Assembly (NCBI GenBank): GCA_037201605.1 | Contig: JBBCGM010000002.1 | Span: forward strand, 16,697-80,696 | Direction: 5' to 3' | Length of the DNA: 64,000 nucleotides | Source of the DNA: Candidatus Moraniibacteriota bacterium | GTDB taxonomy: Bacteria; Patescibacteriota; Minisyncoccia; Moranbacterales; UBA1568 | In this document: positions 11,862 through 40,158 of the stretch, one piece after another | How the letters are laid out: every line of letters starts with the position of its first letter | Position numbering within the stretch: position 1 is the stretch's first letter | Translations under genes and position numbers: made by a program | Notes under the pieces: model-generated | The model's database searches: none | Told to the model about the DNA's origin: nothing | The model's input: only the letters and a program-made list of their open reading frames with translations

Positions 11862-11897
11862 AGGAGTAGTGGTGCGTGTGTGTTTTTGGTTTTCCCG

Positions 11898-15729: not shown

Positions 15730-16559
15730 TCACCTGGTGCGGGTCTTCTTCATTTCACCGAGAGAACACTTCTGAAAATGAATGCTCTCCGTGAAAAACT
15801 CTCGCGCAAGTATGTCTGTACTTTCGGTGAGATCAGTAACGTAAAAATCTCTGGAGGATTCGGTAGAGAGCCGCTCGGCAATTTCCGGGTGATGTGCAAG
15901 GTACGTTTTCAATTTCTCCGGAATGATTTCGTCTTGAGAAATGACGGAGATGCCCTCCCCTGCCAGTTTGCGAATTTCCTCTTTCAACACCGGGGTAGTG
16001 GGTACAGCCGAGGATAAGCGTATCAATGTCCTTTTGGAGAAGCGGCTGAAGATACTCTTCGAGAATAGGCCGAGACCACTTCAGAGCATTGTTTTCAATC
16101 AAAGGAACGAGTAGGGGTGCAGCCTCCTGAAACACCTCCGTGTCCGGCACAAGCTTTTGTACCCTCTTTTACGAACGTCTCTGAGTGAACGGTACTCGCA
16201 GTAGCCAGCACGCCGATTTTTTTATTCTTCGTCTGGCGCGCGGCTTCTTCGGCTGCGGGAATAAGCACTCCGAGCACTTTTCTTTCAGGAAATGCAACCG
16301 GCAAATACTCTTGCTGGATCTTGCGGAGCGCTTCGGCCGAGGCAGTATTGCAGGCAATGATAACGAGCTCGCACTCTTTTTTAAAGAGAAATTCAAGAGC
16401 CTCTAAAGTAAACTCGTATATTTTCTCCTGGGAGCGATTGCCATACGGAACGCGCGCCGTATCACCCAGATACACGTAATCATACTCAGGCAGCGCCGCT
16501 ATGAGGCTTTGGGTAACCACGAGTCCTCCGACGCCGGAATCAAAAATGCCTATCTTCAT
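15730..16559 (-). CDS. murI: Glutamate racemase (two frameshifts as assembled)
   Basis: MKIGIFDSGVGGL, IIACNTAS (first catalytic Cys) and LILGCTHYP (second catalytic Cys). The protein is spread over three consecutive frames: ORFs 16095..16559, 15833..16150 and 15730..16026. Confidence 0.85.
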
Positions 16560-16901: not shown

Positions 16902-17034
16902 GCAAATCGAACTCCTGGATCTCAGGAAAAATAGACCTGCATAGAAGAAGATTCTTCACTCTGTGTGGGTCTTCTTCATATCTACAAACAAAAAGAGCTA
17001 AAAAGAAAAGCGGGTATTGGCATTCGCCTCACCG

Positions 17035-17262
17035 TTAATGTTTAACCTTATCAAACGCCCCTTGCCGCCATTCAAGAATATCTCCGGGTTGGCAGTCGAG
17101 GGCCTCGCAAATCGCTTCAAGTGTAGAGAAGCGGATGGCTTTAGCCTTACCGTTTTTTAAGATAGAAATATTAGCCATTGTTATACCTACTTTTTCCGTT
17201 AGTTCGGTAACGCTCATTTTTCTCTTTGCGAGCATCACGTCGAGATTTACAATAATGCCCAT
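17035..17262 (-). CDS. XRE-family (YozG-like) HTH transcriptional regulator
   Basis: IIVNLDVMLAKRKMSVTELTEKVGITMANISILKNGKAKAIRFSTLEAICEALDCQPGDILEW is the typical short Cro/C1-type regulator that pairs with DUF2975 genes. Confidence 0.85.
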   Translation of the reverse strand: MGIIVNLDVMLAKRKMSVTELTEKVGITMANISILKNGKAKAIRFSTLEAICEALDCQPGDILEWRQGAFDKVKH

Positions 17263-17264
17263 AA

Positions 17265-17780
17265 TTATACCGTTAGTTCATTTTCTGATTTTAACTCCAT
17301 GCCGCTTTGGAGCAGCTTTTGGAGCACGGCAGCAAAGACGGCAACCACCGTCGGAGAGCAGGCGAGGAGAAAACCGATGATGATAAGTCCCGGCGCGTCA
17401 TCGGCTTCGGCGATAAGAAATATGACCGGCATGCCGATAAGGTAGAGGCCGCTCATGGTAAGCGCACAGTACTTGATCGAGCGGAGCGCTTGGATTGATT
17501 GCTCCGAGAATGCCGTGTTTTTGTCTATATGAGTGAGCAGGCGAAACGCCTGAGAGAGCGCGAAGTAAAACGGTATGGCTGTCAGGTACAAACCAAAGAG
17601 GATAGCTTCCCGCAGAGGGGCAATAGCCGGCCATTCGATGGCTGCGCCGCTGGTAATCTTAGGAAGGGCAAAGATGCAAAGAGTGAGCACCACGATCCCG
17701 ATAAAGAAGATGACTCCTTTCAAAAACCATGTTCCTTGTTTCATATGTTTTGTAATTATGCTGTAACACGCAAACTTCAT
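17265..17780 (-). CDS. DUF2975 family membrane protein
   Basis: 171 aa with 4 TM helices, immediately upstream of the YozG-like regulator (2-nt gap). This is the standard DUF2975/XRE gene pair. Confidence 0.7.
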   Translation of the reverse strand: MKFACYSIITKHMKQGTWFLKGVIFFIGIVVLTLCIFALPKITSGAAIEWPAIAPLREAILFGLYLTAIPFYFALSQAFRLLTHIDKNTAFSEQSIQALRSIKYCALTMSGLYLIGMPVIFLIAEADDAPGLIIIGFLLACSPTVVAVFAAVLQKLLQSGMELKSENELTV

Positions 17781-18249
17781 GACGCACTAGATACATGTGC
17801 CGATTGCCTGTCTACAATATTTTCAAACACAACTGCGGCAGCGGCGATGACAAGAGAACCGAAGATGATGAGGACGCCCATGAAAATTCCACCTGCAGGA
17901 TCATCACTCCCATGGTTTAACATAATGAAAACTTCTTCTGCCACAACAAAACCCATAATGGCTAATGCACAATATTTTATAGTCCGCAGAGCTTTTACAG
18001 TATCTTGCGAGAATACCTTATTTTGTCCGGCATATCCCAACACCTTGAACGCCTGATAGAGTGCTATGAAAAAAGGAATAGACCCCTATGTAGGCAAGCG
18101 CGAGGAAAGGATCCTTGAAGTATATTTCAAAGTTCGTGGCATGTACGTTCACGCCCTCGATCTGAGGTTCCCCAAAGCAAGAGAAAAAGGGTGCCGAGAG
18201 CGATGAGTACAATGACCAACTGAAGGAATAGTACTGAGCTTCTTTTCAT
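17777..18249 (-). CDS. Second DUF2975-like membrane protein (two frameshifts)
   Basis: ATG at 18249 with a GGAG ribosome-binding site gives MKRSSVLFLQLVIVLIALGTLFLLLWG. The protein continues in the frames of ORFs 18018..18212 and 17777..18043 (TVKALRTIKYCALAIMGF parallels IQALRSIKYCALTMSGL in the neighbouring gene). Its stop overlaps the next gene's start. Confidence 0.55.
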
Positions 18250-18361
18250 AGGTAACTCCTATAATTTTTATATTCCCATCCTAATTTACTATTTATTGTT
18301 TGTCAATATATTATTATTGTTTTACAAAAATAGCAAATGAGATATGCCCCTGACGGAGATA

Positions 18362-18393
18362 TAAAAACGAGGCTTAGATAGGCCTCGTTTTTG
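18362..18393. terminator. Bidirectional intrinsic terminator
   Basis: AAAAA-ACGAGGC-ttagatag-GCCTCGT-TTTTT, downstream of the HIT gene. Confidence 0.55.
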
Positions 18394-18430
18394 TCTGATC
18401 CTTCTATTGGATTTCGAATCTGTTTAAAGA

Positions 18431-18868
18431 TTACCCCTTTTGTATAATCTTCTTGATTTCTTCGGATATAGACTGAACTTCTTGATCCGACATCAGAACC
18501 CGCTCATTATTATCGTGATCTAGATCACCCATACGAGTATCGGGAATTAAGTGACAATGAACGTGTTCAAGGCTTTTGGCTCCCCCTCTGCCTTCACGGA
18601 TCATAAAAGTAAAACTCTCATATCCTAATCCCCTGAGAACACTCGCTCCTTTATCCATAAGTTCCCAGACACTTTCTCGCTCGTATCTGCTCAATTCAAG
18701 AAAGGACTTCTTGTGACCTTTAGGTATCACAAGGAGATGATGTCTATGGTAGGGGGCAAGGGCATATGTTAGAAAAGCTTCTTCATTCTCAACAAATCTT
18801 CTCCCTTCAGAGTGACAAAAAGGACATTTTCCAGCCGGTAATGTTTCTAAATACTGAGTGTATCGCAT
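18431..18868 (-). CDS. HIT family nucleotide hydrolase/transferase
   Basis: Histidine triad LEHVHCHLIP (HxHxHxx) and an N-terminal CPFCH zinc-type motif. 145 aa. Confidence 0.75.
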   Translation of the reverse strand: MRYTQYLETLPAGKCPFCHSEGRRFVENEEAFLTYALAPYHRHHLLVIPKGHKKSFLELSRYERESVWELMDKGASVLRGLGYESFTFMIREGRGGAKSLEHVHCHLIPDTRMGDLDHDNNERVLMSDQEVQSISEEIKKIIQKG

Positions 18869-18876
18869 AAGGCAGA

Positions 18877-19209
18877 TCAGAATTCTAAAAACTTTCCTAA
18901 TCTCTTCTGAAGCAACTCTACAAGTTTTGGATCACCTCTCTGGTAGATATTCGGGATTTCCAAAACCTCGATGTTTTTACCCTCAATATCAAAATGGTTC
19001 CTCAGATACGTAAGATGCCCATCTTCTTTCTCAGACATGAGGAATACCCGGTCAGCCCAATTGAGGTGAGATTGTGTGATATGCGTAACAGACATCGGTA
19101 GAATACCAGCGCTTTTTGCTTCGTACTGAAGTGAGTCTTTGAATAGATCTTCTGCAGTGGGACTACGCATCATATTAGCACTGCAAACGAAGAGAAGTTT
19201 TTCTTTCAT
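18877..19209 (-). CDS. Low-molecular-weight phosphotyrosine phosphatase / ArsC-like protein
   Basis: The CX5R(S/T) P-loop LFVCSANMMRSPTAE sits near the N-terminus. The likely start is MKEKLLFV at 19209; the ORF extends to 19254. Confidence 0.7.
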   Translation of the reverse strand: MKEKLLFVCSANMMRSPTAEDLFKDSLQYEAKSAGILPMSVTHITQSHLNWADRVFLMSEKEDGHLTYLRNHFDIEGKNIEVLEIPNIYQRGDPKLVELLQKRLGKFLEF

Positions 19210-19340
19210 AAGAAAATTTAGGATTATCTCTAGTACATCAGACTTAGATCCCATCTTAAGAATGATAAAAAACTTCCCGCTGAATAAAATGGATAGCCTC
19301 TTCTTTATACTCTACCTATTGGACAAAGTGAGAACTTACT

Positions 19341-19727
19341 TTACCCTTCTACTTCAACCGTAAATCCGCCGTAAGACATTCGCTTCATATCAAAAGGCAT
19401 CACCATATCTTTATATTCTTCCGCCTTCTTACCCATCTCTTCCATCACTTTAGCGTTCACCTCGTCTCGATGCTCTTTGGAGTTAAAGACTATAAATGAG
19501 AACCAAACTGTCTCATCACTTGTTGCTCCAGCCATATCAGTAAATGCACGCGCTTTTTCGCCGCCCATTTCCTGGGGCACAAGGTCATCCCCACGGCATT
19601 CGTAGTATTCAAGGGCGCCACACTTCATCCATGTATCACGACCTTCCTCTGCCATTTTCTTGTACGCTTCAGTTTTGTCTTCTGGAACTACAAGGACAAA
19701 TCCGTCAACATATTTTCCTGTGCTCAT
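19341..19727 (-). CDS. DUF1428 (YbaA-like) protein
   Basis: KYVDGFVLVVPEDKTEAYKKMAEE...VWFSFIVFNSKEHRDEVNAKVM...MPFDMKRMSYGGF is collinear with my recollection of E. coli YbaA. Confidence 0.8.
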   Translation of the reverse strand: MSTGKYVDGFVLVVPEDKTEAYKKMAEEGRDTWMKCGALEYYECRGDDLVPQEMGGEKARAFTDMAGATSDETVWFSFIVFNSKEHRDEVNAKVMEEMGKKAEEYKDMVMPFDMKRMSYGGFTVEVEG

Positions 19728-19754
19728 ATGCTTAACGCTAGAAATTACTTTTCC

Positions 19755-19782
19755 AGTATATCAGGCCCTATGCGGGGTACAA
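19755..19782 (-). promoter_or_regulatory. Promoter of the DUF1428 gene
   Basis: The minus strand reads TTGTAC-16 nt-TATACT preceded by TGa (extended -10). The string CCTGATATACTG recurs upstream of murI at about 16580-16592. Confidence 0.4.
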
Positions 19783-19847
19783 AAAAGAGGCTCAATTAAG
19801 CCCCTACTTTAGCTGCTCCACCTGTTGGATGAAGTTCAAACCTTTCC

Positions 19848-20717
19848 TTACAAAAAAAGTTCTCTTGATTTTCGACGGTAAGCGTCTAACCATTCAGCAG
19901 TACCTACCTGATCGGGATAAGCACGAGGAATAATCTTCAACTTTTTTCTGCTCAGCTATAAAAAAATCCTTCAAATTCATACTTTCTTCCCCTGTTGAAG
20001 CATATACTAAAGTATCATCTATTTTTTCTGGACCAGCTCCTATGAAAAGAAATGCGGGCGTTTCATTGGCGCCTGGATCTAAAGCATTTTCTCTTTGTAA
20101 GGTGCCAAAAAAAGTTCGGGCAGTTCTCTCTAGTTGCGGAAGACTTGAGAGAGAAATTACTCGTTTCCATGTTTTTCCTTTAGCTACTCGAACCAGATTA
20201 TCAACTTCACTATGTGTATATTCTCCAGTACCTACTGATAAATATTTTTTCAGATGGTATACCTGCTTCTATTAATCTTTTTCTCCATTCAAAATGTCCT
20301 TCCCACAATCCTCCCCCAAAACCTCGAAATACGTCTTTACCAAATTTCTTGCCTTTGATTTGCTCGCTTCTTATGAGTGTTTTTTGTGGAAATAAATCTC
20401 CGTTAAGTGCCACATAGGGGAATATCGAGCTTATCCACCAATTCCTTTGCTTTCAGGAATACCCACTCGTCTTGAATTTTTGGAAGAGCATGAACATGTA
20501 AAGCATCGATAGATTTGTGCTCTCCTTTTAAAAGAGTTTCTACATCTTGAGAGATACCCTTAGCTCTTTCTAATGCAGCGAGAAACAACCCTTCTCTTTC
20601 TTTGTCACTCAGACGCTCAGAAGGATCTTTTTCTGCAGGATAATTTTTCGGTATCTCAAAATTCATACAATTTGTTATCTGATGATTATTTTCAGTATAC
20701 CCAGGTTCAAACTCCAA
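19848..20717 (-). pseudogene. ~289-codon gene of unknown function broken by at least 4 frameshifts
   Basis: A continuous protein-like reading is possible only by hopping frames: ...KELVDKLDIP/YVALNGDLFPQKTLIRSEQIKGKKFGKDVFRGFGGGLWEGHFEW.../...SVGTGEYTHSEVDNLVRVAKGKTWKRV...ANETPAFLFIGAGPEKIDD.../KIIPRAYPDQVGTAEWLDAYRRKSRELFL*. The stop at 19848 lies just before a terminator hairpin (19779-19800). Confidence 0.4.
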
Positions 20718-20844
20718 CGGCGTGTACCAAAAACGAGGCTCTGTTAAGCCTCGTTTTGACTGCTCCGAGGACTGGATGCTATCCGGACCTGCTTGCTAAG
20801 CAGAGATGCCCGGCCGGCCCAGGTATGAAAGATCTTTAGTTATT

Positions 20845-21252
20845 TTACACCTCGGATAACGGGGACACCCCCCAGAATTCCCCATATCTTCCCATCCTCT
20901 GTACCATTCGCTCATCAGGATGACGTGGGCAACGGGGATCATTCTTGTGCACCTCTTCGTATCGGATAGCAGCTTGTTCCTCTTCTTTCTTCCTTTTACG
21001 TTCCGAAATTTTATCCATCAAACCATAAGAATAGAATGTACTGAAGACGCCAGAGGCAAAACTCGCAATACTTACAGTATTCTGGAGATCATCATCCACT
21101 CCACCGTGGTGAGAGCAAGCACCTTGCTTTCCTATAGAAGGAGAATGCCATCCATCCTCACATACCACGGGGCCGACCAAAGATTGACCCAGAGAGTTAA
21201 GTCCGAAAAATGCGACTACTCCCAGAATTAAGGCAGCAACCTCTTTGCTCAT
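20845..21252 (-). CDS. DUF3761-like membrane-anchored protein with a partial C-terminal zinc-ribbon remnant
   Basis: N-terminal TM helix, then DGWHSPSIGKQGACSHHGGV (DUF3761 signature), a second TM helix, and a tail CPRHPDERMVQRMGRYGEFWG. The tail resembles a topoisomerase-type C4 finger but lacks the second Cys pair. Confidence 0.55.
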   Translation of the reverse strand: MSKEVAALILGVVAFFGLNSLGQSLVGPVVCEDGWHSPSIGKQGACSHHGGVDDDLQNTVSIASFASGVFSTFYSYGLMDKISERKRKKEEEQAAIRYEEVHKNDPRCPRHPDERMVQRMGRYGEFWGVSPLSEV

Positions 21253-21258
21253 ACTAAT

Positions 21259-21396
21259 CTACTGAACTTCTTCAAAATACTTCTCGAGTGCTAGTTCGGC
21301 CAAACCAAAAAGATTGTCCCTCACTTCTTCAATTTGCTTATCGGCAAGAACATTACTATGTGGGATTAGCTCCCGACACTTTTCAATGGAAAGCAT
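21259..21396 (-). CDS. Possible 45-aa protein (below the ORF-track cutoff)
   Basis: ATG-initiated reading MLSIEKCRELIPHSNVLADKQIEEVRDNLFGLAELALEKYFEEVQ*, packed tightly between two minus-strand genes. Confidence 0.3.
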   Translation of the reverse strand: MLSIEKCRELIPHSNVLADKQIEEVRDNLFGLAELALEKYFEEVQ

Positions 21397-21399
21397 AGA

Positions 21400-21636
21400 T
21401 TACGGCTTCTCATTTTTTTTAGACCACTCCCCGAACCCAACAGTCTCATCAAAGCCTAATTCGAGTTTCAAACGCCTTAGATCCTCTAGCTGCTGCTCAG
21501 AATACTTTTCTGGCTTCAAAAGAGAATGAAGATACTCTAAAATAATCCAGATTTTTGCACCCTCTTTATTAAGATCCCCATCTCGAAGCCCTTTTTCTAT
21601 TTCTGCTATCTGATTTTGAATTAGAGTCTTATCCAT
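21400..21636 (-). CDS. Hypothetical 78-aa protein
   Basis: ATG ORF in an AT-rich island context. I recognise no family. Confidence 0.4.
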   Translation of the reverse strand: MDKTLIQNQIAEIEKGLRDGDLNKEGAKIWIILEYLHSLLKPEKYSEQQLEDLRRLKLELGFDETVGFGEWSKKNEKP

Positions 21637-21687
21637 AAGTTTCTCTTGAAATAACCCTCTTTTTATATTACACTGGAATCAAAGGTT

Positions 21688-21739
21688 CCACCCCGCCAAT
21701 AAGAGCCCTCGGGCTCTTCCGAAAGGATAGGCGGGGTGG
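21688..21739. other. Nested (hairpin-within-hairpin) GC-rich structure
   Basis: Outer 10-bp stem CCACCCCGCC / GGCGGGGTGG enclosing an inner stem AGAGCCC-tcg-GGGCTCT. On the plus strand it is followed by tcaTTTTTTT. Confidence 0.5.
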
Positions 21740-21833
21740 TCATTTTTTTAGGGAAATTTTCCATAATCAATAATAAATTGTATTGCCCAAGGCAAATACG
21801 GAAAAGTCACTTTTTACCATACCTCTTATTGCC

Positions 21834-22482
21834 TCATAAGGCCTTGTCTCCCCTCTTTCTTTCTTTACGAACATCGCCCCAACCACAGTAGTCTGCGATT
21901 TGGCAATTTATATCCATTTTTGTCTGATGGAAACAAACAAAAAACGGCTTATTGAATTCTTTCAAATACCTCTTAAGGCTTTTGAGAATATAATCATGTT
22001 TTTTGTTTGTAAACAGTGTACCTAAAACAACAACGATTTTTTCAATCCCATCATTGTTCTTATGTCTGCTAAAAATATATTGAAGTAAAATTTGCAGAAT
22101 CTTATCGTAAAACTTCTCCTCATTACGGATAGTTTTCAAAGAAAACTTCCCGTCTTTTCTAACAATCTCCCGTTTTATGTAAAGAGATGGATTAGCCTTG
22201 TTCTTCTCAGCAAGAATCGAATCCACTTCAAAATCATCTAGTCTTCCAAGTGCATCAAAGACCCAGTCTCTTGTCTCTTGCATATCTTCCGTAGCGTGAA
22301 GATAGTAATCTTTTTTATCGTTTTTCCAGGCATCGTATTTCAGTTCATAAGACTTTTTTAATAACTCCTCACGAGATTTCAAAGGTTCAGTAGTGCTTAT
22401 CGCAGTCAAGGAAAAATACTTCGTTCCCTTAGGAGAGAAATCAAAATTTCCTGATTCATCAATAAAAATGTAGAGTTTCCAT
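21834..22482 (-). CDS. DUF3800 family protein (frameshift right after the start codon)
   Basis: An N-terminal KLYIFIDESGNFDF (DESG motif) is readable one frame off the ATG at 22480-22482. A C-terminal NCQIADYCGW matches the conserved Q-x-AD motif of DUF3800. Confidence 0.6.
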
Positions 22483-22670
22483 GATCTTCTATCCTATATA
22501 CAATCAGGCTTCAAACTAGTTTATTTCCAGGCCCTGTTTTTCAATTTTTCTCCTACCTGAATAAAAGAGTCGGGAGGACTGAGTGCTATCCGAACCTCCT
22601 TTAAGAGTCCCGCTTCCTTCAGACTAATTTCGCGGTAAGCTTCCCCTCCTCTTCATTATTCCAATCAACT

Positions 22671-23255
22671 TCAATATAACGAGTAAATTTTTCCCCCAGA
22701 TTCCTGAAAAATAGTTATTTCTAAAGTTGTTTTCCCAGGCTTCAAAGACTGGAAATGATCGACTCCTCCCGATTTTCGAGTAATAATCTTTGCAAAGCCC
22801 TTTTCCTCTATAAGAGCATAGGCATTCCTAAAATCAATAACATCAAGATAGGCTGTTTGAGATGGTAATATGTCTCTACTTTCACAATTCAAGTGAGTCC
22901 ATCTTAACGGAACTGCTAAAAAGTTAGATCTTCTTTTTCCATTGTCAATAACTTGAGTCACCTCAACCTGGACATCCTTTGCAATCTGATTACCAACATT
23001 TTTTATCGGAAGCCTCCAGTAGAGGCTAGATTGGGAATACAATTCTAGCTTTAGAGTCTTTAAGTTAGGCTTAATCCATAAGAAAGGCTTTATATACTTT
23101 CCTATCCCTCCTGCGATCAGTAATGAAGTAAAAGAGGCTACAAGAATTGCCCAAAATGCAAGGTCAGAAAATAAAGGTCTGGGTGTAGACTTCCAACTCT
23201 CTGAATTTCTTGCAATTTGTTCTAGAAGTGGAAGAAGTTGAGGGTCCATATCCAT
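22671..23255 (-). CDS. Single-pass membrane protein with a beta-rich C-terminal domain; downstream partner of the OLD-like nuclease
   Basis: 194 aa with a TM helix AFWAILVASFTSLLIAGGIG followed by a ~130-aa beta-rich region. It starts 6 nt after the stop of 23262..25268. I recognise no family. Confidence 0.55.
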   Translation of the reverse strand: MDMDPQLLPLLEQIARNSESWKSTPRPLFSDLAFWAILVASFTSLLIAGGIGKYIKPFLWIKPNLKTLKLELYSQSSLYWRLPIKNVGNQIAKDVQVEVTQVIDNGKRRSNFLAVPLRWTHLNCESRDILPSQTAYLDVIDFRNAYALIEEKGFAKIITRKSGGVDHFQSLKPGKTTLEITIFQESGGKIYSLY

Positions 23256-23261
23256 TACATC

Positions 23262-25268
23262 TCATATCTCTCTTAAGAGTATCCTCTTGAACCAGTCTTG
23301 CAAATAATCGGGAATATCGTCTAAAGCTAGAGTTTCGATTAATTGTAGAGCATTATCAATCTTATTCTCTCTTAAGGAAGGAAATAATTTCTCTAGTGAT
23401 CCTGACCGAAGAATCATAATACTCTCTTCTTGAGCAAGCTCAGTCAAAACTGATGCTAATTCGTTGCTTAAAACAGGGTGTTCAATTTCAGTAGCCCTCT
23501 CCTCTCTTATATATTCAATGAGTCCAGAGAATCTTGAATAGAACTCTTCTTTCTCCAATTCGCCATAGTTAGCAATTAGATCAACCAGAGATTGAGCATC
23601 TTTGGATGGAGAAGTACATAGAATACGTCGTAATTTGCTAGACGAGAAAGAGATGAGACTCTCGATCTCTTCATTTAGAGCAACCAGACGTTTTTTAAGT
23701 CCAGGATTTTTTATTAAGGTGTTACTTGCTCCCTTTAATTCTTTAAGAAGATCAAAATCACCGATAATAAAATTCTCAATCTTCCAACCATTCAGAAATT
23801 CTCTAAATTTCCCTAAAGTTCCTTTTCCACCAGCCTCTAAAATCTCCACTTCTTCACATTCTCCTCCACTATCCTTAATCTTTTTAAGAATCTCGGTATA
23901 TACGATCAGATCAGAAGTACCTTCTACCAAGATGACTTTCTTAGCAAAAAATGCCTTCTCACTATTCGTTGTACTAATAAATCTAATCAAATCTTTTATT
24001 TCGCTATCTCGATTCAAGTTCGCAGGTATTACTTCACTAATACCAGTGCTGTAATTCATTGATACACGATATACATCTGCCAAACTCCTTAAACTCACCA
24101 TCTTTGGTGAATGCGTACTCAGTATAAATTGAAGCTCATATTTTTCAGCTAGATCATAGATAAGATCCAGGATTAACTGCTGCCATTGGGTGTGAAGATG
24201 AAGTTCTGGCTCATCAATAATCACAATTCCTCCTCGTATTCCTCTTAGTACTAACTTAGAAATCAAATTTAAAAATTCAATCTCTCCAGAACTCAATTTT
24301 GCATTGGTACCATTTAATCTTTTGAAGTCAATTATGTAACTTTCACAGTGTGGAATTTGATCGTCTTTTGTAATGTTAACTTCAATTTTTAAATACTCTC
24401 TTAGAAATTCTTTAAAATTATTTAAGATTTCTGTGTTATTTTCTGAGAATAAGAACGCGATTCTTACAGGTATTGATCCAATATCATTGCTTTGGAAATC
24501 TCTATTCTGGTTATGCTCATTACCTGAAGAACTATCAGTTTTAACCTCGCTTAAATTCACCAGAAATCTTTCTTGAAAACCCGTTAAGAGTCTATGCGGA
24601 GAAACGTACACTAGAAGAGGACTAGCATCTATCTCTTTAACAACTAGAGATAGTTGATAAAGGAGTCTTGTATAACGGAGTAGCCTCACCAGCTTTGCAA
24701 ATTCTATATTCTGTTGCTCCGAAAGAGTGGGTTCGGGCTGTAGTTCACATCGATCTACAGGAAAAATCTTAAATATTGCCCGCTTAGACAAATATTGAGA
24801 GAGATCTGGTATTTCTGAAGTTTCGTGAATAATTCTCCTGAGGTCATCACTCTTTTCAACTTGCTCCTCTAGCTTTCTTAGAACAACTTCTTTTTCTCCT
24901 ACTAATAATTCTGCCAACTTTATATCAGAATCATTCAAAGTAAATTCCACCTCCAGGCTCGATTCTTCAGTTTCATGTAATGAATGCTTATCTAGAATAT
25001 TCTTTAATACATTTGATTGCTCTGTACTAATAGTTTCCAGCACGTAAGCAGCTAAAGACATATTGTCTGGCGTATTTCGCTGTCTGTTATACTCTATTCT
25101 CCCTTGATGAAATATAAATAAATTTAAAGCACCTTGAAGAGCTTCAAAGAGGTTGGTTTTACCTCCGCCATTGTGACCAATGAAGATATGGACGCCCTCT
25201 CTAAAATCAATCTTCTGAGAAGGATAGTAACTCTTAACGTTATTTAAAGTTATCGAATTTAACCTCAT
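23262..25268 (-). CDS. OLD-family nuclease: ABC-type ATPase fused to a Toprim domain
   Basis: Walker A GHNGGGKTN, ABC signature LSSGE, Walker B IVIIDEPELHLH and H-loop STHSP. The Toprim domain shows VILVEGTSD (Glu), EAGGKG and IIGDFD (DxD). 668 aa and very AT-rich (12/60 GC at 24361-24420). Confidence 0.8.
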   Translation of the reverse strand: MRLNSITLNNVKSYYPSQKIDFREGVHIFIGHNGGGKTNLFEALQGALNLFIFHQGRIEYNRQRNTPDNMSLAAYVLETISTEQSNVLKNILDKHSLHETEESSLEVEFTLNDSDIKLAELLVGEKEVVLRKLEEQVEKSDDLRRIIHETSEIPDLSQYLSKRAIFKIFPVDRCELQPEPTLSEQQNIEFAKLVRLLRYTRLLYQLSLVVKEIDASPLLVYVSPHRLLTGFQERFLVNLSEVKTDSSSGNEHNQNRDFQSNDIGSIPVRIAFLFSENNTEILNNFKEFLREYLKIEVNITKDDQIPHCESYIIDFKRLNGTNAKLSSGEIEFLNLISKLVLRGIRGGIVIIDEPELHLHTQWQQLILDLIYDLAEKYELQFILSTHSPKMVSLRSLADVYRVSMNYSTGISEVIPANLNRDSEIKDLIRFISTTNSEKAFFAKKVILVEGTSDLIVYTEILKKIKDSGGECEEVEILEAGGKGTLGKFREFLNGWKIENFIIGDFDLLKELKGASNTLIKNPGLKKRLVALNEEIESLISFSSSKLRRILCTSPSKDAQSLVDLIANYGELEKEEFYSRFSGLIEYIREERATEIEHPVLSNELASVLTELAQEESIMILRSGSLEKLFPSLRENKIDNALQLIETLALDDIPDYLQDWFKRILLREI

Positions 25269-25313
25269 AAGTTAGCTCACACTTTTTCAGATATTCTTAA
25301 TCTAATTCTACTC

Positions 25314-25853
25314 CTAAATCACCGACCTATCTATTAGGGGATAGTTGATGACAAGGAGCATCTTTTCGCACTCAGGGCAGGAGACGTCCATGAGATCATG
25401 ATAGTGGTCTATATCGCCATCCCCTGCTTTTCCCTTCCAACCACATATCGGGCATTCCAAGAGCATATCCCTACTGAAATCGGCATATTCAATGATGGGG
25501 GCAGGATGGTGCATGGCATCTTCCAGGGTGGCCCGGGTAACGTGTTGCTGCCGGCCCTTACGTTCCTCCGACAAGACTTGAGCAGCCTGGTCCGCTTCCT
25601 TATCCCATGTTTTGCGTTCCAGGGCCGCCAATTTGAGGCCCAAGACCATTGCCTGTGTCATTGAGGGGGCTGATTTGAGCTCCACTTTGAGAGTTTTGCG
25701 TTCCAAGGCCGCCAATTTCAGGCCCACCAAGAGGGCTGCTCCCGCCGATTCCGCTGCCTGGCCCTCCTTCTGGAGCTCCTGATACGCCGCGAAATCCTCG
25801 GGCGACAGCTTCTGAGACCAGTCCTTGTCTTTGTTGATTTGAGAGTTCTTCAT
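25314..25853 (-). CDS. Coiled-coil repeat protein with a C-terminal CxxC...CxxC zinc ribbon
   Basis: Two 28-aa repeats (GLKLAALERKT...), then CPICGWKGKAGDGDIDHYHDLMDVSCPEC. It lies 45 nt upstream of the OLD-like gene. The N-terminus may extend to 25971 in another frame. Confidence 0.5.
   Translation of the reverse strand: MKNSQINKDKDWSQKLSPEDFAAYQELQKEGQAAESAGAALLVGLKLAALERKTLKVELKSAPSMTQAMVLGLKLAALERKTWDKEADQAAQVLSEERKGRQQHVTRATLEDAMHHPAPIIEYADFSRDMLLECPICGWKGKAGDGDIDHYHDLMDVSCPECEKMLLVINYPLIDRSVI
25609..25736 (-). repeat. 84-bp-period tandem duplication inside the zinc-ribbon gene
   Basis: GTTTTGCGTTCCAgGGCCGCCAATTTgAGGCCCA at 25609 is repeated as GTTTTGCGTTCCAaGGCCGCCAATTTcAGGCCCA at 25693. 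Confidence 0.7.
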
Positions 25854-26175
25854 ATATTTCTTTGTTACTGATTAAGGCTGCCTTTTGCTTATCGACCCAA
25901 AACAAAAAACGGCTGAGAGATTTGATCCAGAACTTCTGAATGAAATCTCCCAACCGCTTGAGGTTAGTCATCTATCGCATCCGGTGCCCAGCAGATTTCC
26001 CTGGTTACCTTCTCAATGAAGAGAGCTGACAGATGTTCTGCGATTCGCTCCGCAGAAAAGCTTTTTATTCAAACAACTACACTAGTATAATAGCATAAAT
26101 TTCTTTACCTGTCTAGTAGGAGTAAGGGGAGGATTCTGGTGGATTCCTATGGATATCGTCTAGTGCTTTGAATGA

Positions 26176-26424
26176 TCAGCCTTTCCGTAAAAATGTGAGG
26201 GTGTTTTCAATATTGGCTTTGGCTGCTTCAGCATACATCTCCCCCCTATTTTTGAGGTAGTAATCGTAAATATCCTTATAGCCAGCCTCTTTGGCTATTC
26301 GATTCAAATCATTATTCAGTGCCTCGAAAGCCACGTACACGTTCTTATTCCCTTTTGTATACGCATATTTACTCCAAAGAGAGACTACTATAAATGTGAC
26401 TACAATGGCTCCTATAGTGCTCAT
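26176..26424 (-). CDS. Small membrane-anchored protein, unknown function
   Basis: 82 aa with an N-terminal TM helix IGAIVVTFIVVSLW. Confidence 0.4.
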   Translation of the reverse strand: MSTIGAIVVTFIVVSLWSKYAYTKGNKNVYVAFEALNNDLNRIAKEAGYKDIYDYYLKNRGEMYAEAAKANIENTLTFLRKG

Positions 26425-26458
26425 AGAAAAAGTTTAAAGATTTAAACGAATCTTTTAA

Positions 26459-26797
26459 TCAAGATTTTTTTCTGAAACCTATCTCCAGAAAAGCTTCTTG
26501 ACTGGCCAATTTCAAGTTCTCTTTCATAGCTTCGTCATCAGCAATAAAGCTGTCGAGATGAGCCTCAACGAACTTAAGCATATCTAACTGTTCCCTGTTT
26601 CCCTTTTCTTCTGCATACTTTTTCCATAAATCAAAAGCATACCTTATGACTGGTTTCGGATAGGGCAATAAGGACTCGGGGTAAAGCAGCATAGGATACT
26701 TTAAAACTCCATCCGTGCCTACTTCCTCGATAGTTTTTCCAAAGGCATGACAAACCTTTTCGACCAACACGTAATTAATTTCCTCATTTTTTTCCAT
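26459..26797 (-). CDS. Hypothetical protein (likely start MEKNEEINY at 26797)
   Basis: The ORF 26459..26884 has a GC-rich, structured upstream extension that is probably non-coding. I recognise no family. Confidence 0.4.
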   Translation of the reverse strand: MEKNEEINYVLVEKVCHAFGKTIEEVGTDGVLKYPMLLYPESLLPYPKPVIRYAFDLWKKYAEEKGNREQLDMLKFVEAHLDSFIADDEAMKENLKLASQEAFLEIGFRKKS

Positions 26798-27014
26798 AAT
26801 CCATAATTTTACGAATACAAAAAGCCCACCGCCAGGCGACGCCCTTTCGGGCATCCGCACCCCTTTCGAGATGCGACCGATCAAGGTGAACCTAGACGAT
26901 GGGTTCGCTATCCTTGATCGGCTTTCCGAGCCATGCCTCCGGATTCCTCCGAGGGTTTAGGCCCCTAAATTGTGCCGTCATTATTGCGCACTTTTCCGAG
27001 GGAGGCAAACACTC

Positions 27015-27042
27015 TTGACACCACTGGCGGGAGGAGTAAAAT
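27015..27042 (+). promoter_or_regulatory. Strong sigma70-type promoter
   Basis: TTGACA (27015-27020), a 16-nt spacer, then TAAAAT (27037-27042). Confidence 0.5.
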
Positions 27043-27079
27043 AGAAGCAAATATCGTTCCCACGGGAGATCCCCGGAGA

Positions 27080-27116
27080 CCGTCTACAAACTCTTGTTTT
27101 GTGGGCGGTTTTTTTA
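27080..27116 (+). terminator. Intrinsic terminator about 35 nt downstream of the predicted start; defines a candidate ~65-nt sRNA or leader
   Basis: An 11-bp stem CCGUCUACAAA / UUUGUGGGCGG (two G-U pairs) followed by T7. Confidence 0.5.
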
Positions 27117-27134
27117 TTTCCAAAAAGTCAGGTC

Positions 27135-27323
27135 ATGCTCTCCGAGGATGCCGTCGCCAAATTCCAGAAGCTCTACCGGAAACATTTCGGCCGAGAGATA
27201 AGCCCGGAAGAGGCCCGCGAGAAGGGAGCACAGCTTCTCAGATTCATGGAGCTGATGCGGGCTCCCTTGAAAGAAGAAGAATTCCAGGAACTCCAAGAAC
27301 GCGTTGCCCGGAATATTCAGTAA
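27135..27323 (+). CDS. Small hypothetical protein (62 aa) of the island's integration/replication module
   Basis: MLSEDAVAKFQKLYRKHFGREISPEEAREKGAQLLRFMELM... The upstream part of ORF 27099..27323 overlaps the terminator, so the ATG at 27135 is preferred. Confidence 0.45.
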   Translation: MLSEDAVAKFQKLYRKHFGREISPEEAREKGAQLLRFMELMRAPLKEEEFQELQERVARNIQ

Positions 27324-27334
27324 GAATCAAACAT

Positions 27335-27619
27335 ATGAAATCCGTCGAGAGAAGATTCCGCGAGGTCAAGGAAAAGCAACCCCTTTGGAGCTCCTATCTC
27401 TGCTTCTGCGAGGCCGTTCGGGACGCCGGATTTGAGAAGCAGCCAATAAGCCGTTGGCTCAATAAGCTGGTGGAGAAGGATGACTATGCGGGATCAAAGA
27501 GGGCTGTTCTGGCATTCCTGGCCGCACTTTCAAAACCGCTGAGGGCGACCGAAATGAGCCTTTTCCGGCCCCAGGAGGCGCGGAAATATCCAAGCGGACT
27601 CCTCCCTCCGAAATCTTAA
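27335..27619 (+). CDS. Hypothetical protein (94 aa)
   Basis: ATG at 27335, in frame with ORF 26972..27619 and 11 nt after the previous stop. I recognise no family. Confidence 0.4.
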   Translation: MKSVERRFREVKEKQPLWSSYLCFCEAVRDAGFEKQPISRWLNKLVEKDDYAGSKRAVLAFLAALSKPLRATEMSLFRPQEARKYPSGLLPPKS

Positions 27620-27633
27620 CTACTTCCCCCTGA

Positions 27634-28086
27634 ATGCCTATGAGTATGCGAAGCTTATCCCAAGTTTCCCAAGGCCGTCTGTCCCAATTGAAGGCAGCCA
27701 CGGAACGAGTAAACGCCAACACTCAGCTAATGGAAAATCTCGGCGTTAGGCCTGTTGGCTACAATGTTGTCCTGGCACGCCTGTCGGGAAAGGCCACTCA
27801 TGCCCTTTTCATGAGCCAGCTCCTCTATTGGCACGGAAAGGGCCGGGACAAGGAATGGTTCTACAAGACACAAAAAGACTTCGAGGAGGAAACCGGGCTA
27901 AATCGATCCGAACAGGATAGAGCCATCGAGTTTTGGAAGGGACTCGGGGTTCTAAAAGTAAAAAGAAAGGGGATTCCCCAGAAACGCCATTTCCAGGTAG
28001 ACGTCCGGAAATTGACTGCGTTAGCTTTGAAGGTAAATGCGAAATGGAGCACCGAAAATGCAGATTCAACCGTCCCAAACTGCTAG
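27634..28086 (+). CDS. Hypothetical DNA-binding (winged-helix-like) protein, possible replication/initiator function
   Basis: 150 aa. The region ALFMSQLLYWHGKGRDKEWFYKTQKDFEEETGLNRSEQDRAIEFWKGLGVLKVKRKG resembles DnaD/replisome-organiser-type wHTH proteins. It is followed immediately by iteron-like repeats. The functional call is inference. Confidence 0.35.
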   Translation: MPMSMRSLSQVSQGRLSQLKAATERVNANTQLMENLGVRPVGYNVVLARLSGKATHALFMSQLLYWHGKGRDKEWFYKTQKDFEEETGLNRSEQDRAIEFWKGLGVLKVKRKGIPQKRHFQVDVRKLTALALKVNAKWSTENADSTVPNC

Positions 28087-28087
28087 A

Positions 28088-28129
28088 TCCAGCAAACTAT
28101 TACAGAAACTACTAAACAGAGACTACTCC
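28088..28129 (+). repeat. Three iteron-like direct repeats
   Basis: cagcAAACTATTACAG / AAACTACTAAACAG / AGACTACTCCAG in tandem. Confidence 0.45.
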
Positions 28130-28228
28130 AGAAATTTTCTCTTTCAGAGAAGAGGGAAAATAAAAAAATTGATCTCTGGAGCTCTCACTTTCACTGTCAT
28201 TCAAAGAAAAATGTTGTATAATACCAGT

Positions 28229-28317
28229 GTTGACCCAACCATTCCATTACGCACGGATTTTATTGTCCCCAGAAAGGGGCGGTTCTGCCGACAAGCATCC
28301 GTGCAAGTTGGGTCAAC
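28229..28317 (+). promoter_or_regulatory. 89-bp nested inverted repeat between a TATAAT box and the recombinase start
   Basis: GTTGACCCAAC (28229-28239) pairs with GTTGGGTCAAC (28307-28317). Inside it, GCACGGAT pairs with ATCCGTGC. Innermost is CCCC-agaaa-GGGG. A TATAAT box precedes the repeat at 28216-28221. Confidence 0.55.
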
Positions 28318-28347
28318 CAGGACCGTCCCTTTTTGTTTTGAAACTCT

Positions 28348-29922
28348 ATGAAAAGAAGCCCCGAGAAAATTAAATATTTCCTCTACGCCCGGAGGTCCTC
28401 TGAGGGCGAGGATCGGCAGATGGCCTCGATTGATTCCCAGATCGTCGAATTGACCAAGTTGGCCCAAGAGAACGGTTTAGAGATCTCGGGCATCTTCAAA
28501 GAATCCAAATCGGCTAAGGCGCCGGGACGCGAAGTCTTTTCGGAGATGATGCAGCGCATCGAGAAAGGAGAGGCTGACGGCATTATCTGTTGGAAACTGA
28601 ATCGCCTGGCACGAAATCCGATTGACGGAGGGAAAATCAGTTGGATGCTCCAGCAAGGCATCGTCAAACACATCTTCACCCATGGGCGGAGCTACTATCC
28701 CAGTGACAATGTAATCGTGATGGCCGTTGAGCTCGGTATGGCCAACCAATTCATCCGGGACCTCAGCACGGACACGAAGAGAGGACTCCTCTCAAAAGCT
28801 GAACGCGGCTGGTATCCGGCCTTTTCCACGATCGGCTACATAGACAATCCCATGCGCCGGAAGGGGGAGAAAGATATTGTTCCTGATCCTGCGCGTTTTC
28901 CTTTGGTACGAAAAATGTTCGACCTCATGCTCACCGGAACGTACACTACCCCGATGATTCTCGAAATTGCTACACGCGAATGGGGACTCCGGATGAAAAA
29001 CGGGAAGCCGATGGCGCGAAGCACCGCCTATCGAATCCTTGCCGATCCTTTTTATTACGGAGAGTTCGAGTACCCCAAGGACAGCGGGAATTGGTATCGA
29101 GGAAAGCACGAGCCGATGATCACGCGCGACGAGTACGATCGTATCCAACGTTTGCTCGGCAGAAAAGGCAGCCCTCGAGTTCGGACCCACATGTTCACGT
29201 TCACAGGCATGATTCGCTGCGGTGAGTGCGGATGCCTAATCACCGCCGAGAAAAAGACGAAGTATCAAAAGAACGGGAACATTCATTCCTATACTTACTA
29301 TCGGTGCACAAAGCAAAGAGTCCCCTGCTCTCAGAAAACTCTTCGGAGTGGGGTTCTGAGAGAACAGATCCTCGGAGAATTGGATCGGATTACCATTCCT
29401 CCTGAATTCAAGGAATGGGCGATGGAAATCCTGGAGGCGCAAAGCAAGGAAAGCTCCTCGGGCAAAAAGACTATTACTGCTACTCAGCAAAAGAGTTACG
29501 AGGCCTGTCTCAATGAACTCGATGGACTCATCAGCATGCGAGCTCGTGGGGAGATTGATCAAGAAACTTTTCTTCGGAAGAAACTTGAACTGGAGAAAGA
29601 AAAAAGTAGGTTAGCCGAAATTCTCAAAGAAGGAGACGCGGTTACGGGAGACTGGCTGGAGAGAGCGGAGCGGCTTTTCGGTTTTTCCGAACTCGCCAAG
29701 TATCGTTTTGAGACCAGCACCCGTCAGGAGAAGAGGGAGGTTCTAGCCTTTCTCGGCTCGAACCTCACCCTCAAGGACCGAAAATTGCTTATTCAAAGGA
29801 AAAATGAGCTGTTACTTATCGAACAACTCGCTAAAGAGGAGAGATTGATCCGGGAACCGTTAGAACCTCTTGATTTACCTTTAGATAAAGCAAAACCGGG
29901 CAGAATATGCCCAGAGTCCTAG
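28348..29922 (+). CDS. Large serine recombinase (integrase type)
   Basis: Resolvase-type N-terminus YARRSSEGEDRQMASIDSQ with the catalytic Ser, and ICWKLNRLARN. A recombinase domain follows, then the zinc ribbon CGECGCLITAEKKTKYQKNGNIHSYTYYRCTK and a C-terminal coiled coil. 524 aa. Confidence 0.9.
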   Translation: MKRSPEKIKYFLYARRSSEGEDRQMASIDSQIVELTKLAQENGLEISGIFKESKSAKAPGREVFSEMMQRIEKGEADGIICWKLNRLARNPIDGGKISWMLQQGIVKHIFTHGRSYYPSDNVIVMAVELGMANQFIRDLSTDTKRGLLSKAERGWYPAFSTIGYIDNPMRRKGEKDIVPDPARFPLVRKMFDLMLTGTYTTPMILEIATREWGLRMKNGKPMARSTAYRILADPFYYGEFEYPKDSGNWYRGKHEPMITRDEYDRIQRLLGRKGSPRVRTHMFTFTGMIRCGECGCLITAEKKTKYQKNGNIHSYTYYRCTKQRVPCSQKTLRSGVLREQILGELDRITIPPEFKEWAMEILEAQSKESSSGKKTITATQQKSYEACLNELDGLISMRARGEIDQETFLRKKLELEKEKSRLAEILKEGDAVTGDWLERAERLFGFSELAKYRFETSTRQEKREVLAFLGSNLTLKDRKLLIQRKNELLLIEQLAKEERLIREPLEPLDLPLDKAKPGRICPES

Positions 29923-29926
29923 AATG

Positions 29927-29998
29927 CTCCGGCGGTAGGATTCGAACCTACGACCAAGTGGTTAACAGCCACCTGCTCTACCACTGAGCTACGCCGGA
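29927..29998 (-). tRNA. tRNA-Asn (anticodon GTT)
   Basis: Hand-folded cloverleaf: acceptor stem TCCGGCG/CGCCGGA, D stem GCTC/GAGC, anticodon stem GGTGG/CCACT with loop CTGTTAA, T stem GTAGG/CCTAC with loop TTCGAAT. CCA is not encoded. Confidence 0.9.
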
Positions 29999-37709: not shown

Positions 37710-37763
37710 GCCTTTATAGCGTAAATGGGTATACAGTAGAGATATAATCCCTAGCCGCTCATT

Positions 37764-38663: not shown

Positions 38664-38781
38664 GAAAAACTAATTCAAAGCAAAAGCGAGCCCATCTGGG
38701 CTCGCTTTCACTTTAGCGGAAGGAGTGGGATCAAGTGGGAACAAAAAATTTATACCTAAAACCTTCCTATCTACCCTACTA

Positions 38782-40005: not shown

Positions 40006-40041
40006 CCATCTTTATAAGATGTTTATAGTTTAACATATTAC

Positions 40042-40064: not shown

Positions 40065-40074
40065 AAATAAGGTG

Positions 40075-40158
40075 CGGAAGGAGTGGGATTCGAACCCACG
40101 AGTCCTTGCGGACGCACGCTTTCCAAGCGTGTGCCTTAAACCACTCGGCCATCCTTCC
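40075..40158 (-). tRNA. tRNA-Ser (anticodon GGA)
   Basis: Acceptor stem GGAAGGA/TCCTTCC, anticodon stem CACGC/GCGTG with loop TTGGAAA, long variable arm GTCC-gcaa-GGAC, T stem GTGGG/CCCAC with loop TTCGAAT. Confidence 0.9.

Follow-up and report, generated by a model that had tools for sequence, protein, structure and literature searches.

Genes and features of the locus

The window analysed here, the whole stretch of 64,000 nucleotides from a Candidatus Moraniibacteriota genome (assembly GCA_037201605.1, contig JBBCGM010000002.1), contains an intact tRNA-Asn(GTT) gene, identified by ARAGORN at 29926-29998 on the minus strand, a gene for a large serine recombinase (LSR) converging on its 3' end, and a long block of AT-rich genes to the left of both. 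We propose, with a probability of roughly 0.78, that a single integrated element of 11.5 kb lies between about 18397 and 29930, at the extreme 3' end of the tRNA gene, and that it was inserted by its own LSR into the chromosome of this member of the candidate phyla radiation (CPR). The features that would define its recombinase and its two ends are listed below (coordinates are those of the window).

18369-18396: hairpin GAGGCTTAGATAGGCCTC followed by a T-run, directly left of attL, the presumed displaced original trailer and terminator of tRNA-Asn (B arm)
18397-18430, plus strand: candidate attL at the left end of the island, composed of the core GATCC(T) and the P' arm TCTATTGGAT-TTCGAATCTGTTTAAAGATTACCCC
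28194-28317, plus strand: promoter-like site CTGTCA-17-TATAAT and perfect 11-nt inverted repeat GTTGACCCAAC, upstream of the LSR gene
28348-29922, plus strand: LSR, 524 aa (PF00239, PF07508 and PF13408; integrase family phrog_95, 9.5e-63)
29887-29914, minus strand: hairpin CTGGGCA-TATTC-TGCCCGG followed by a T-run, found by terminator scan, directly downstream of the tRNA and within the last LSR codons
29926-29931: attR core GCTCCG (tRNA positions 74-69), the putative crossover region at the right end of the island
29926-29998, minus strand: tRNA-Asn(GTT)

The recombinase carries a Resolvase catalytic domain (PF00239, 2.2e-19, residues 11-154), a Recombinase domain (PF07508, 6.5e-9) and a Zn_ribbon_recom domain (PF13408, 2.5e-8). 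The catalytic Ser17 region is present, conservation of the R15-x-S17 region extends to 36 homologs, and every invariant column of the resulting 37-sequence alignment is kept. Matches in PDB include the A118 integrase (4KIS, E 2e-7) and the TP901-1 catalytic domain, and the protein aligns to the C-terminal domain structures of A118 integrase (4KIS/6DNW); for residues 390-412, Pfam gave only a weak match to a SHOCT-like helix. The stop codon ends 3 nt short of the tRNA 3' end. An earlier note on this DNA, made from the sequence alone, had recognised the serine recombinase at this position, with its stop 4 nt from the tRNA 3' end, and its description of the gene was borne out. The deposited gene model (500 aa) begins at Met25 and omits the segment with the catalytic serine, KIKYFLYARRSSEGEDRQ (28348-28419); the upstream start at 28348 is supported by all homologs. 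Because of this shorter model, a look-up of the exact 524-aa protein gave no match. The two copies of the inverted repeat GTTGACCCAAC lie at 28229-28239 and 28307-28317, and these, together with the promoter-like site, are regarded as putative functional elements of the LSR gene.

The LSR family and its tRNA neighbours

The LSR belongs to a large family with 5460 database matches at E<1e-20, the best 120 of the 5460 being 54-83% identical. For comparison, 97 loci encoding LSR homologs were collected (individual loci are given as L numbers), of which 89 had enough sequence after the gene to be informative. At 50 of these 89 loci, a convergent tRNA gene abuts or overlaps the LSR stop with its 3' end. 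A total of 13 anticodon types are represented, including 26 tRNAs for Asn, seven for His, five for Ser and four for Trp, with fewer for Thr, Gln, Arg, Met, Ala and Tyr. Most of the tRNA-adjoining LSR reading frames extend 10-61 nt into the antisense strand of the tRNA. Tandem arrays of family members are found in L105, L126, L143 and L150. Neither this LSR family nor tRNA-targeting LSRs in CPR were found described in the literature searched.

More distant members (45-54% identity) were also observed without a tRNA after the LSR gene (L125, L136, L137, L139/L142, L146, L147 and L151; furthermore L153, L154, L163, L164, L166, L175 and L176). In these, as for example in L125 and L136, the reading frame runs across an attP-type arm and encodes a conserved ...VRTW(I) tail. 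Such members may be unintegrated forms of plasmid-like or phage-like nature.

As a separate observation, group I introns of 193-583 nt interrupt the anticodon loop of tRNA-Asn(GTT) genes in several CPR relatives, namely L086 (3116-3573), L088, L113, L116, L124, L165 and L179 (10655-11282). The partial tRNAs beside some LSR genes are such intron-split tRNA-Asn genes and do not represent attP sites. The intron of L086 and L088 corresponds to Rfam RF00028 (78.8 bits), and the insert of L179 encodes an HNH endonuclease; the tRNA-Asn of the window is without an intron. A crossover in the anticodon loop, which had been considered from the tRNA 3' half in L086 and L088 and from contig breaks at positions 30-39, was rejected, since the 5' half is located about 390 nt away across the group I intron.

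Position of the junction and geometry of the att sites

The window tRNA-Asn is 100% identical to that of the closest relative, L082. The position of the junction was located by two pairs of loci. Between L172 (tRNA-Ser CGA) and L174 (tRNA-Trp CCA), an identity of 97.4% extends over 5.7 kb and breaks off 4 nt into the tRNA gene. L103 (tRNA-Asn) and L105, a tandem array in which the element is joined to a second one, match at 89% as far as position 6 of the tRNA. Both pairs thus put the junction at the acceptor end, with the tRNA left untouched. In the family as a whole, the junction between element and host falls among the final 4-7 nt of the tRNA (core GCTCCG in the case of Asn), and a core of 5-7 nt at the tRNA end recurs at the attL sites. 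A crossover in the T-loop with a 16-nt repeat of the tRNA end, considered from L111, was discarded as a general rule because the same two pairs put the junction at positions <=4-6 and because the canonical attL of L111 does not coincide with this repeat.

The spacing of the conserved motifs differs between the two kinds of half-site. TTMGAAC is located 26 nt from the conserved TCC anchor in tRNA-less junctions vs 21 nt in tRNA-joined junctions, and the distance from an upstream motif to TTMGAAC is 88 vs 83 nt. Measured from the core, the T-loop motif TTCGAAC is 9 nt away within the tRNA and TTMGAAC is 14 nt away in the attL or P' arms. An offset of 5 bp is the established difference between attP and attB half-sites of serine integrases, and the half-sites of A118 integrase reportedly follow a comparable geometry (Rutherford et al. 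2013). The 5-bp offset between the attP-type and tRNA half-sites suggests that the zinc-ribbon domain may read the T-loop motif TTCGAAC.

A search for attP-type arms upstream of the LSR genes identified six sites, 5.0-9.6 kb from the LSR start, against 0.46 expected. When the core was required to be that of the locus's own tRNA, attL sites were found in L100, L111, L114, L119, L158 and L172, that is, six vs one on the control strand, and the distance from these sites to the end of the tRNA (3') gives element sizes of 4.2-11.1 kb. At tRNA-Asn, the attL sites show the order hairpin with T-run, core GCTCC(G), 14 nt and GTTMGAACCTGTTT. In L111, the canonical attL lies 175 nt further in than a 16-nt copy of the tRNA end, giving an island of 10.2 kb. 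The combination that characterises LSRs, short att sites with a small core and an offset of about 5 bp, is thus found at the level of the family; the window attL deviates from it with a 10-nt spacer. A P arm at the first TTMGAACC motif, which precedes the core by about 70 nt, was considered and set aside, this motif being too distant and explained by conserved (R/G)(L/F)EP codons.

The left end of the island

The candidate attL of the window stands out in several respects. The window has a single copy of the 13-mer TTMGAAYCTGTTT, at 18413-18425, and 100 shuffles gave none; between 13 and 29.9 kb, TTCGAA is likewise confined to this site. It aligns with the attL sites of L114, L119, L111, L100 and L128, shares with L114 the tail CTGTTTAA..TTACCCC, and coincides with a compositional boundary. 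The hairpin directly to its left (18369-18396) is identical in 24 of 26 positions to a terminator located downstream of tRNA-Asn, across a 10-nt spacer, in L181 and L182, two loci that lack the LSR. The sequence of this hairpin is absent from the other 180 loci. When 18396 is joined to the tRNA, an L181-like arrangement with the identical 10-nt spacer is obtained. The layout of hairpin, T-run and core is shared by other attL sites of the family.

The unique attL-type site, the compositional boundary and the adjoining tRNA-terminator-like hairpin altogether place the island at about 18397-29930. The earlier note had set the left boundary at 16990, which has to be moved inward to the attL-type site at 18397-18430, and the XRE and DUF2975 genes (17035-18043) therefore fall outside the att-bounded element. 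To the left of 18397, a search for relics of another LSR or core module gave nothing above noise at E<=1.

Three palindromes that resemble terminators and one another (AAAAACGAGGCT...GCCTCGTTTT) were observed between cargo genes at 18363-18391, 19781-19809 and 20729-20757, the first of which is the one matching the tRNA-Asn terminator of L181.

A terminator hairpin within the LSR gene

The hairpin found directly downstream of the window tRNA has counterparts throughout the family. For 46 non-redundant loci, the mean minimum free energy of the hairpin was -12.9 kcal/mol, whereas control windows on the antisense strand of the respective LSR genes averaged -4.8 kcal/mol, and the hairpin fell below the 5th percentile of the controls in 65% of the loci. 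The stem sequences vary between loci and the pairing is kept. In these analyses, folding of each sequence against controls from its own locus replaced RNAalifold, which had given no consensus since the loop lengths shift the register. From this conservation, the original trailer of the tRNA appears to be exchanged for a terminator of the element, whose sequence is provided by the antisense strand of the conserved C-terminal LSR codons (consensus DKxKLxxxYAQSPxLLRR).

Composition and host

The GC content is 0.30-0.45 over approximately 17.7-26.5 kb vs 0.50-0.59 elsewhere and in the flanks. The tetranucleotide deviation over 17.5-26.5 kb reaches z = 4-10.8, against a maximum of 2.7 in the background windows, which were taken from outside this stretch and outside a second block at 37.5-40.2 kb. 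The LSR module (27-30 kb) is host-like in tetranucleotides, with z of 0.5-2.3. With deviant cargo beside a host-like LSR module, the mosaic composition described in the earlier note is real. The core genes that it had placed on the flanks were seen on the right side, where rpoD, dnaG and NUDIX are located. The rpoD of the window is 65-85% identical to that of Moranbacteria metagenome-assembled genomes, and the CPR attribution is sound.

Presence among relatives and alternative explanations

Among relatives, the LSR is accompanied by other cargo in L086, L093 and L123. L181 shows the same synteny as the window, PK-tRNA-Ser-malic-dnaG-rpoD-NUDIX-tRNA-Asn, and in L179 (rpoD 84-85%) the intron-containing tRNA-Asn is followed by a terminator and no LSR. 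Beside the tRNA-Asn of L181 (11037-13815), and likewise in L182, homologs of the two small core-module proteins, a DUF5659 protein and a 493-aa protein were observed without an LSR or replication gene; this locus looks like a decayed element. The earlier note had taken a shared gene order without an empty site in close relatives as speaking against an island; relatives with 84-85% rpoD identity lack the LSR (L179) or have a remnant (L181). The presence of the LSR thus appears sporadic, as expected for a mobile element. No relative with more than 90% average nucleotide identity and a clean empty site was found. Altogether, the comparative data strengthen the view, already put forward in the earlier note, of an LSR-driven integrative island with foreign, AT-rich cargo at tRNA-Asn of a CPR genome.

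The same note had suggested a tandem accretion of two elements, that is, an LSR/Rep element of about 3 kb beside an older, unrelated AT-rich island with a lost integrase. Such an origin would agree with the host-like LSR module next to the strongly deviant 17.7-26.5 kb, and with the occurrence of the tandem arrays of the family; moreover, the contig of the closest relative, L082, ends just left of the core module, and homologs of two cargo genes lie near the tRNA-Asn of L179, which is without an LSR. However, neither TTCGAA nor GTTMGAAC occurs in 18.5-29.8 kb, no att-like motif is present between the core module and the cargo, and the sole attL-type site (18397-18430) is located beyond the cargo; in the relatives with a mapped attL (L111, L114 and L119), AT-rich cargo is contained inside the unit, and in L111 a host-like LSR module accompanies it there. 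New arrivals enter at the tRNA side, and the older block should therefore be more ameliorated, not less. Since LSR module and AT-rich cargo are enclosed by one attL/attR pair, with no att-like site in between, two accreted elements are disfavoured and we regard them as unlikely. Still less probable is that the LSR is a domesticated resident, inherited vertically and used, for instance, for local cargo capture or inversion, while an AT-rich hotspot was filled by other means. The arrangement rpoD-tRNA-Asn-LSR recurs in many lineages, the composition of the LSR module is host-like, LSR identity follows host dnaG identity across loci, and between the window and L082 the LSR and NUDIX genes have diverged about equally (about 80% at the nucleotide level); yet 97% identical elements are found at tRNA-Ser and tRNA-Trp, the family occupies 13 tRNA types and forms tandem copies, its attL sites have attP-type geometry, and equally related genomes are without the LSR (L179) or have remnants only (L181). 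That the island is a prophage or a satellite of a phage is the least probable of all. The match of the LSR to a PHROG integrase family, the presence of a Rep-O-like domain and one distant LSR homolog (42% identity) on an IMG/VR contig point in this direction, but no capsid, tail, terminase or lysis match was found in the reading frames scanned by Pfam or PHROGs, which makes a prophage unlikely. In addition, the element is only 11.5 kb in size, GenBank phage LSRs are at most 28% identical to the window LSR, and the family is nearly absent from IMG/VR: a scan with the single protein gave no relatives, and one with an alignment gave only four weak loci.

Several observations weigh against the proposal of a single, LSR-inserted element at 18397-29930. 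The window attL has the core GATCC and not GCTCC, and a spacer of 10 and not 14 nt. When the window was scanned with the tRNA 3' end by Smith-Waterman alignment, the best score was lower than the shuffled null. No window copy of the 3' part of the tRNA was found with <=5 mismatches allowed over 18 nt; the distal end repeats only the 5 nt of the core (GATCC/GCTCC). The 18369-18396 hairpin matches that of L181 slightly better when inverted (24/26) than in the same orientation (23/28), and the L181 hairpin could itself be element-derived. The attP-like contigs of the family have no terminal repeats and none is circular. The agreement of LSR with dnaG identity, and the equal divergence of LSR and NUDIX from L082, would also fit long vertical residence; the correlation shows either a long association with the host or transfer among relatives. 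At L111:1196-1211, 175 nt outside the canonical attL, the 16 nt of positions 3-18 of tRNA-Asn are repeated exactly; this copy likewise does not conform, and may be the relic of an earlier event.

State of the window copy

The region of LSR, tRNA and NUDIX is 79% identical in nucleotide sequence between L082 and the window. Compared with L082 and the family consensus, the window LSR has a 2-nt deletion around 29894/29895, by which the last 10 or so codons are frameshifted and the YAQSP tail is lost; the same deletion weakens the hairpin (-11.3 vs -20.9 kcal/mol). The attL carries one core substitution and a 4-nt deletion in the spacer, and the Rep-like protein spans only the N-terminal third of its profile. 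The frameshifted LSR tail, the weakened hairpin, the attL lesions and the truncated Rep together suggest that the element is decaying in place and is probably no longer mobile. The neighbouring murI gene for glutamate racemase (15730-16559, minus strand) is split over three frames (16095-16559, 15833-16150 and 15730-16026), as either a pseudogene or the result of assembly indel errors, and for this reason an assembly error may also lie behind the frameshift of the LSR tail.

Core module and cargo genes

The remaining features of the island and its left border are listed below.

17035-17262, minus strand: XRE (HTH_26, Pfam), outside the att-bounded element
17265-17780 and 17777-18043, minus strand: DUF2975 and a DUF2975 fragment (Pfam), outside the att-bounded element
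18431-18868, minus strand: HIT hydrolase (Pfam; also PADLOC ThsC, 1.7e-7)
18877-19254, minus strand: LMW-PTP-like protein (Pfam, N-terminal P-loop only, 25 bits)
19341-19727, minus strand: DUF1428 protein (Pfam)
20403-22409, minus strand: cargo reading frames of 191, 78, 135 and 104 aa, from the list of open reading frames
22671-23255, minus strand: 194-aa OLD partner, with a 39% identical homolog beside tRNA-Asn in L179
23262-25268, minus strand: OLD-family ATPase-TOPRIM nuclease, 668 aa (Pfam AAA_15, AAA_21 and OLD-like_TOPRIM; PADLOC Old, 8e-29)
25314-25853 (179 aa), 26176-26424 (82 aa) and 26459-26884 (141 aa), minus strand: three cargo reading frames without a Pfam, PHROG or PADLOC match
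26885-27098: divergent intergenic region between the core module and the leftward cargo, with promoter-like sites on both strands
27099-27323, plus strand: conserved small core-module protein of about 62-74 aa (tblastn: 21 LSR loci and L181)
27335-27619, plus strand: conserved small core-module protein of 94 aa (tblastn: 12 LSR loci and the LSR-less L181)
27634-28086, plus strand: 150-aa protein with a replication-initiator-O-like N-terminal (DNA-binding) domain (phrog_9773, 3.6e-28, profile positions 5-112 of 288)

In relatives with the order dnaG-rpoD-tRNA-Asn (L086, L093, L111 and L123), the module is composed of two small proteins, a 730-aa Toprim_2 protein, a protein of 178-221 aa and the LSR, and the cargo beyond it is unrelated and on the opposite strand, including for example restriction-modification genes and a PLD-SNF2 protein. 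The window shares only the two small proteins with other LSR loci and none of the cargo, and the Rep-O-like protein, for which no homolog was found in other LSR loci, takes the place of the primase. The 94-aa protein has no Pfam or PHROG match. The promoter-like sites of the intergenic region are TTGACA-16-TAAAAT on the plus strand (27015-27042, 11/12) and a minus-strand site at 27008-26980.

The OLD cassette (22671-25268) is a putative anti-phage cassette and has the most deviant composition of the window (z 10.8). A UvrD-like helicase GajB was not found beside the OLD gene, the neighbouring 194-aa and 179-aa proteins being without a Pfam or PADLOC match, and the cassette is therefore not Gabija; the ABC-type ATPase fused to TOPRIM corresponds to a class 1-like, stand-alone OLD. 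The 179-aa reading frame contains an internal repeat of 84 nt. The cargo is probably at least partly defensive.

Most of the gene labels given earlier held, namely OLD, HIT, DUF1428, one XRE, DUF2975, the P-loop of LMW-PTP and the Rep-like protein, while DUF3800, DUF3761, a second XRE and the iterons did not. The 191-aa reading frame once labelled DUF3800 has no Pfam match at E<=0.01, the 135-aa reading frame stays below threshold for DUF3761 (19 bits vs a cut-off of 29), and repeat searches gave no iteron array but only short two-copy repeats. No Pfam domain of a relaxase, coupling protein or type IV secretion system (T4SS) was found in the scanned island reading frames, oriT lying outside the search, and no virion structural, packaging or lysis genes were found in those scanned, most of them by Pfam and a subset by PHROGs.

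The DUF1428 protein was observed to be 81% identical in amino acid sequence (84% in nucleotides) to that of L179 (15522-15923), located 4.3 kb from tRNA-Asn on a Moranbacteria contig of low GC (0.43) without an LSR; NUDIX and dnaG are 57% identical between the two. This is possible evidence that genes have passed from one CPR lineage to another at this locus, and it hints that the cargo was probably acquired from lower-GC relatives.

Membership of the XRE and DUF2975 genes in the island is doubtful. The composition of this region is host-like up to about 17.7 kb, and a DUF2975 homolog is present 7 kb upstream of the LSR in L141.

A model for integration and comparison with known systems

In the proposed mechanism, the LSR would pair attP of the circular element with attB, of which the right half-site (B') would be the acceptor and T-arm of the tRNA. 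A short core common to both sites (GCTCCG for Asn) would be cut with a 2-bp stagger, and strand exchange would take place inside this core. The zinc ribbon would read the T-loop TTCGAAC 9 nt from the core, and in attP the equivalent TTMGAAC at 14 nt. Integration would keep the tRNA intact and swap its trailer for the element end with the terminator hairpin in the last LSR codons, the original trailer and terminator being shifted to the far end (attL, 18369-18430). The element itself would consist of a core module of host composition on the LSR strand (two small proteins, the Rep-O-like protein and the LSR) and AT-rich cargo on the opposite strand.

Beyond the window, we tentatively put forward, at somewhat less than even odds, that a very large and apparently CPR-centred LSR family uses the universal tRNA T-arm as an attB half-site, with the zinc ribbon reading TTCGAAC, the acceptor-end core setting the tRNA and an antisense terminator supplied by the element, and that this family is a main vehicle of defence-gene turnover in CPR.

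Phage-type large serine integrases (A118/LI Int, phiC31, Bxb1, TP901-1 and SPbeta SprA) have the same order of resolvase, recombinase and zinc ribbon, and likewise use short att sites with a small common core and a distal motif 5 bp further out in the attP arms. The window family differs from them in its low identity (<=28%), its CPR hosts, the LSR reading frame that usually enters the antisense tRNA by 10-61 nt, and a P arm that doubles as tRNA terminator. Integration of serine recombinases into tRNA genes has been called rare, the cited cases being phiRSM Int of Ralstonia filamentous phage, at the 3' 13 bp of tRNA-Ser, and Mycobacterium AICEs at tRNA-Leu (PMC3218068, PMC4471427). These are likewise serine recombinases at a tRNA 3' end, as compared by description and not by sequence, but phiRSM Int is a small enzyme of the resolvase/invertase type and not an LSR as in the window family, and the Mycobacterium AICE group uses one tRNA in one genus, whereas the window family has 5460 database matches and at least 13 tRNA types.

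The islands of tyrosine integrases at tRNA and tmRNA genes (Islander/TIGER) share with the window an integrase gene by an intact tRNA, AT-rich foreign cargo, a seemingly sporadic distribution, tandem arrays and the preservation of tRNA function. The enzyme of the window is unrelated, however, the crossover in its family is placed at the acceptor end and not in the anticodon loop or T-loop, and at the far end only a core of 5-7 nt is found and no tRNA 3' duplicate of at least about 16 nt. By the usage of Islander, an integrase gene beside an intact tRNA is thus present in the window and a displaced tRNA 3' fragment is absent. SCCmec cassettes are inserted by the CcrAB LSRs at the extreme 3' end of rlmH, a conserved housekeeping gene, without inactivating it, and form tandem composites with variable cargo. 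In comparison with the window island, they have a protein-coding target, two recombinase genes and Firmicutes hosts, and the searches run gave no close sequence similarity.

The genomes of CPR/Patescibacteria are tiny, and few of their mobile elements have been precisely mapped. For the window, the result is a corrected, att-bounded island at about 18397-29930 that is seemingly decaying in place; the wider interest would be in the integration logic of the family, as deduced from sequence patterns. If the family model is true, it would define a route of gene flow into CPR genomes, notably for anti-phage systems such as OLD and, in relatives, restriction-modification. A serine integrase would then solve the problem of insertion at an intact tRNA otherwise than tyrosine integrases do, by acceptor-end cutting, T-arm recognition and a terminator of its own. 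The family could hop between tRNA species by small changes, the 97% identical elements at tRNA-Ser and tRNA-Trp being already in place, and many natural integrases with a ubiquitous attB predictable from the tRNA would become available, useful for the genetics of uncultured lineages and for integrase engineering.

Other features of the surrounding region

A second deviant block is present at 37500-40011 (GC 0.43, z 4-5), adjoining tRNA-Ser(GGA) at 40074-40158 on the minus strand. Its two reading frames, of 302 and 409 aa, have no Pfam match, and no integrase was found in the block; the 409-aa frame beside tRNA-Ser, considered as a second integrase, was ruled out on this basis. The 302-aa frame has a 31% identical homolog beside tRNA-Ser in L093 and may be a conserved host gene of low GC.

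The gene order near the locus is scrambled among Moraniibacteriota, as seen for 880-2939 and 4710-11897 of the window in comparison with L181, L086, L123 and L179. Genes for a sortase and an ice-binding-like protein are 8 kb from tRNA-Asn in L181 vs 27 kb in the window, and a giant protein of 1979 aa is located beyond dnaG in L086, L123 and L179.

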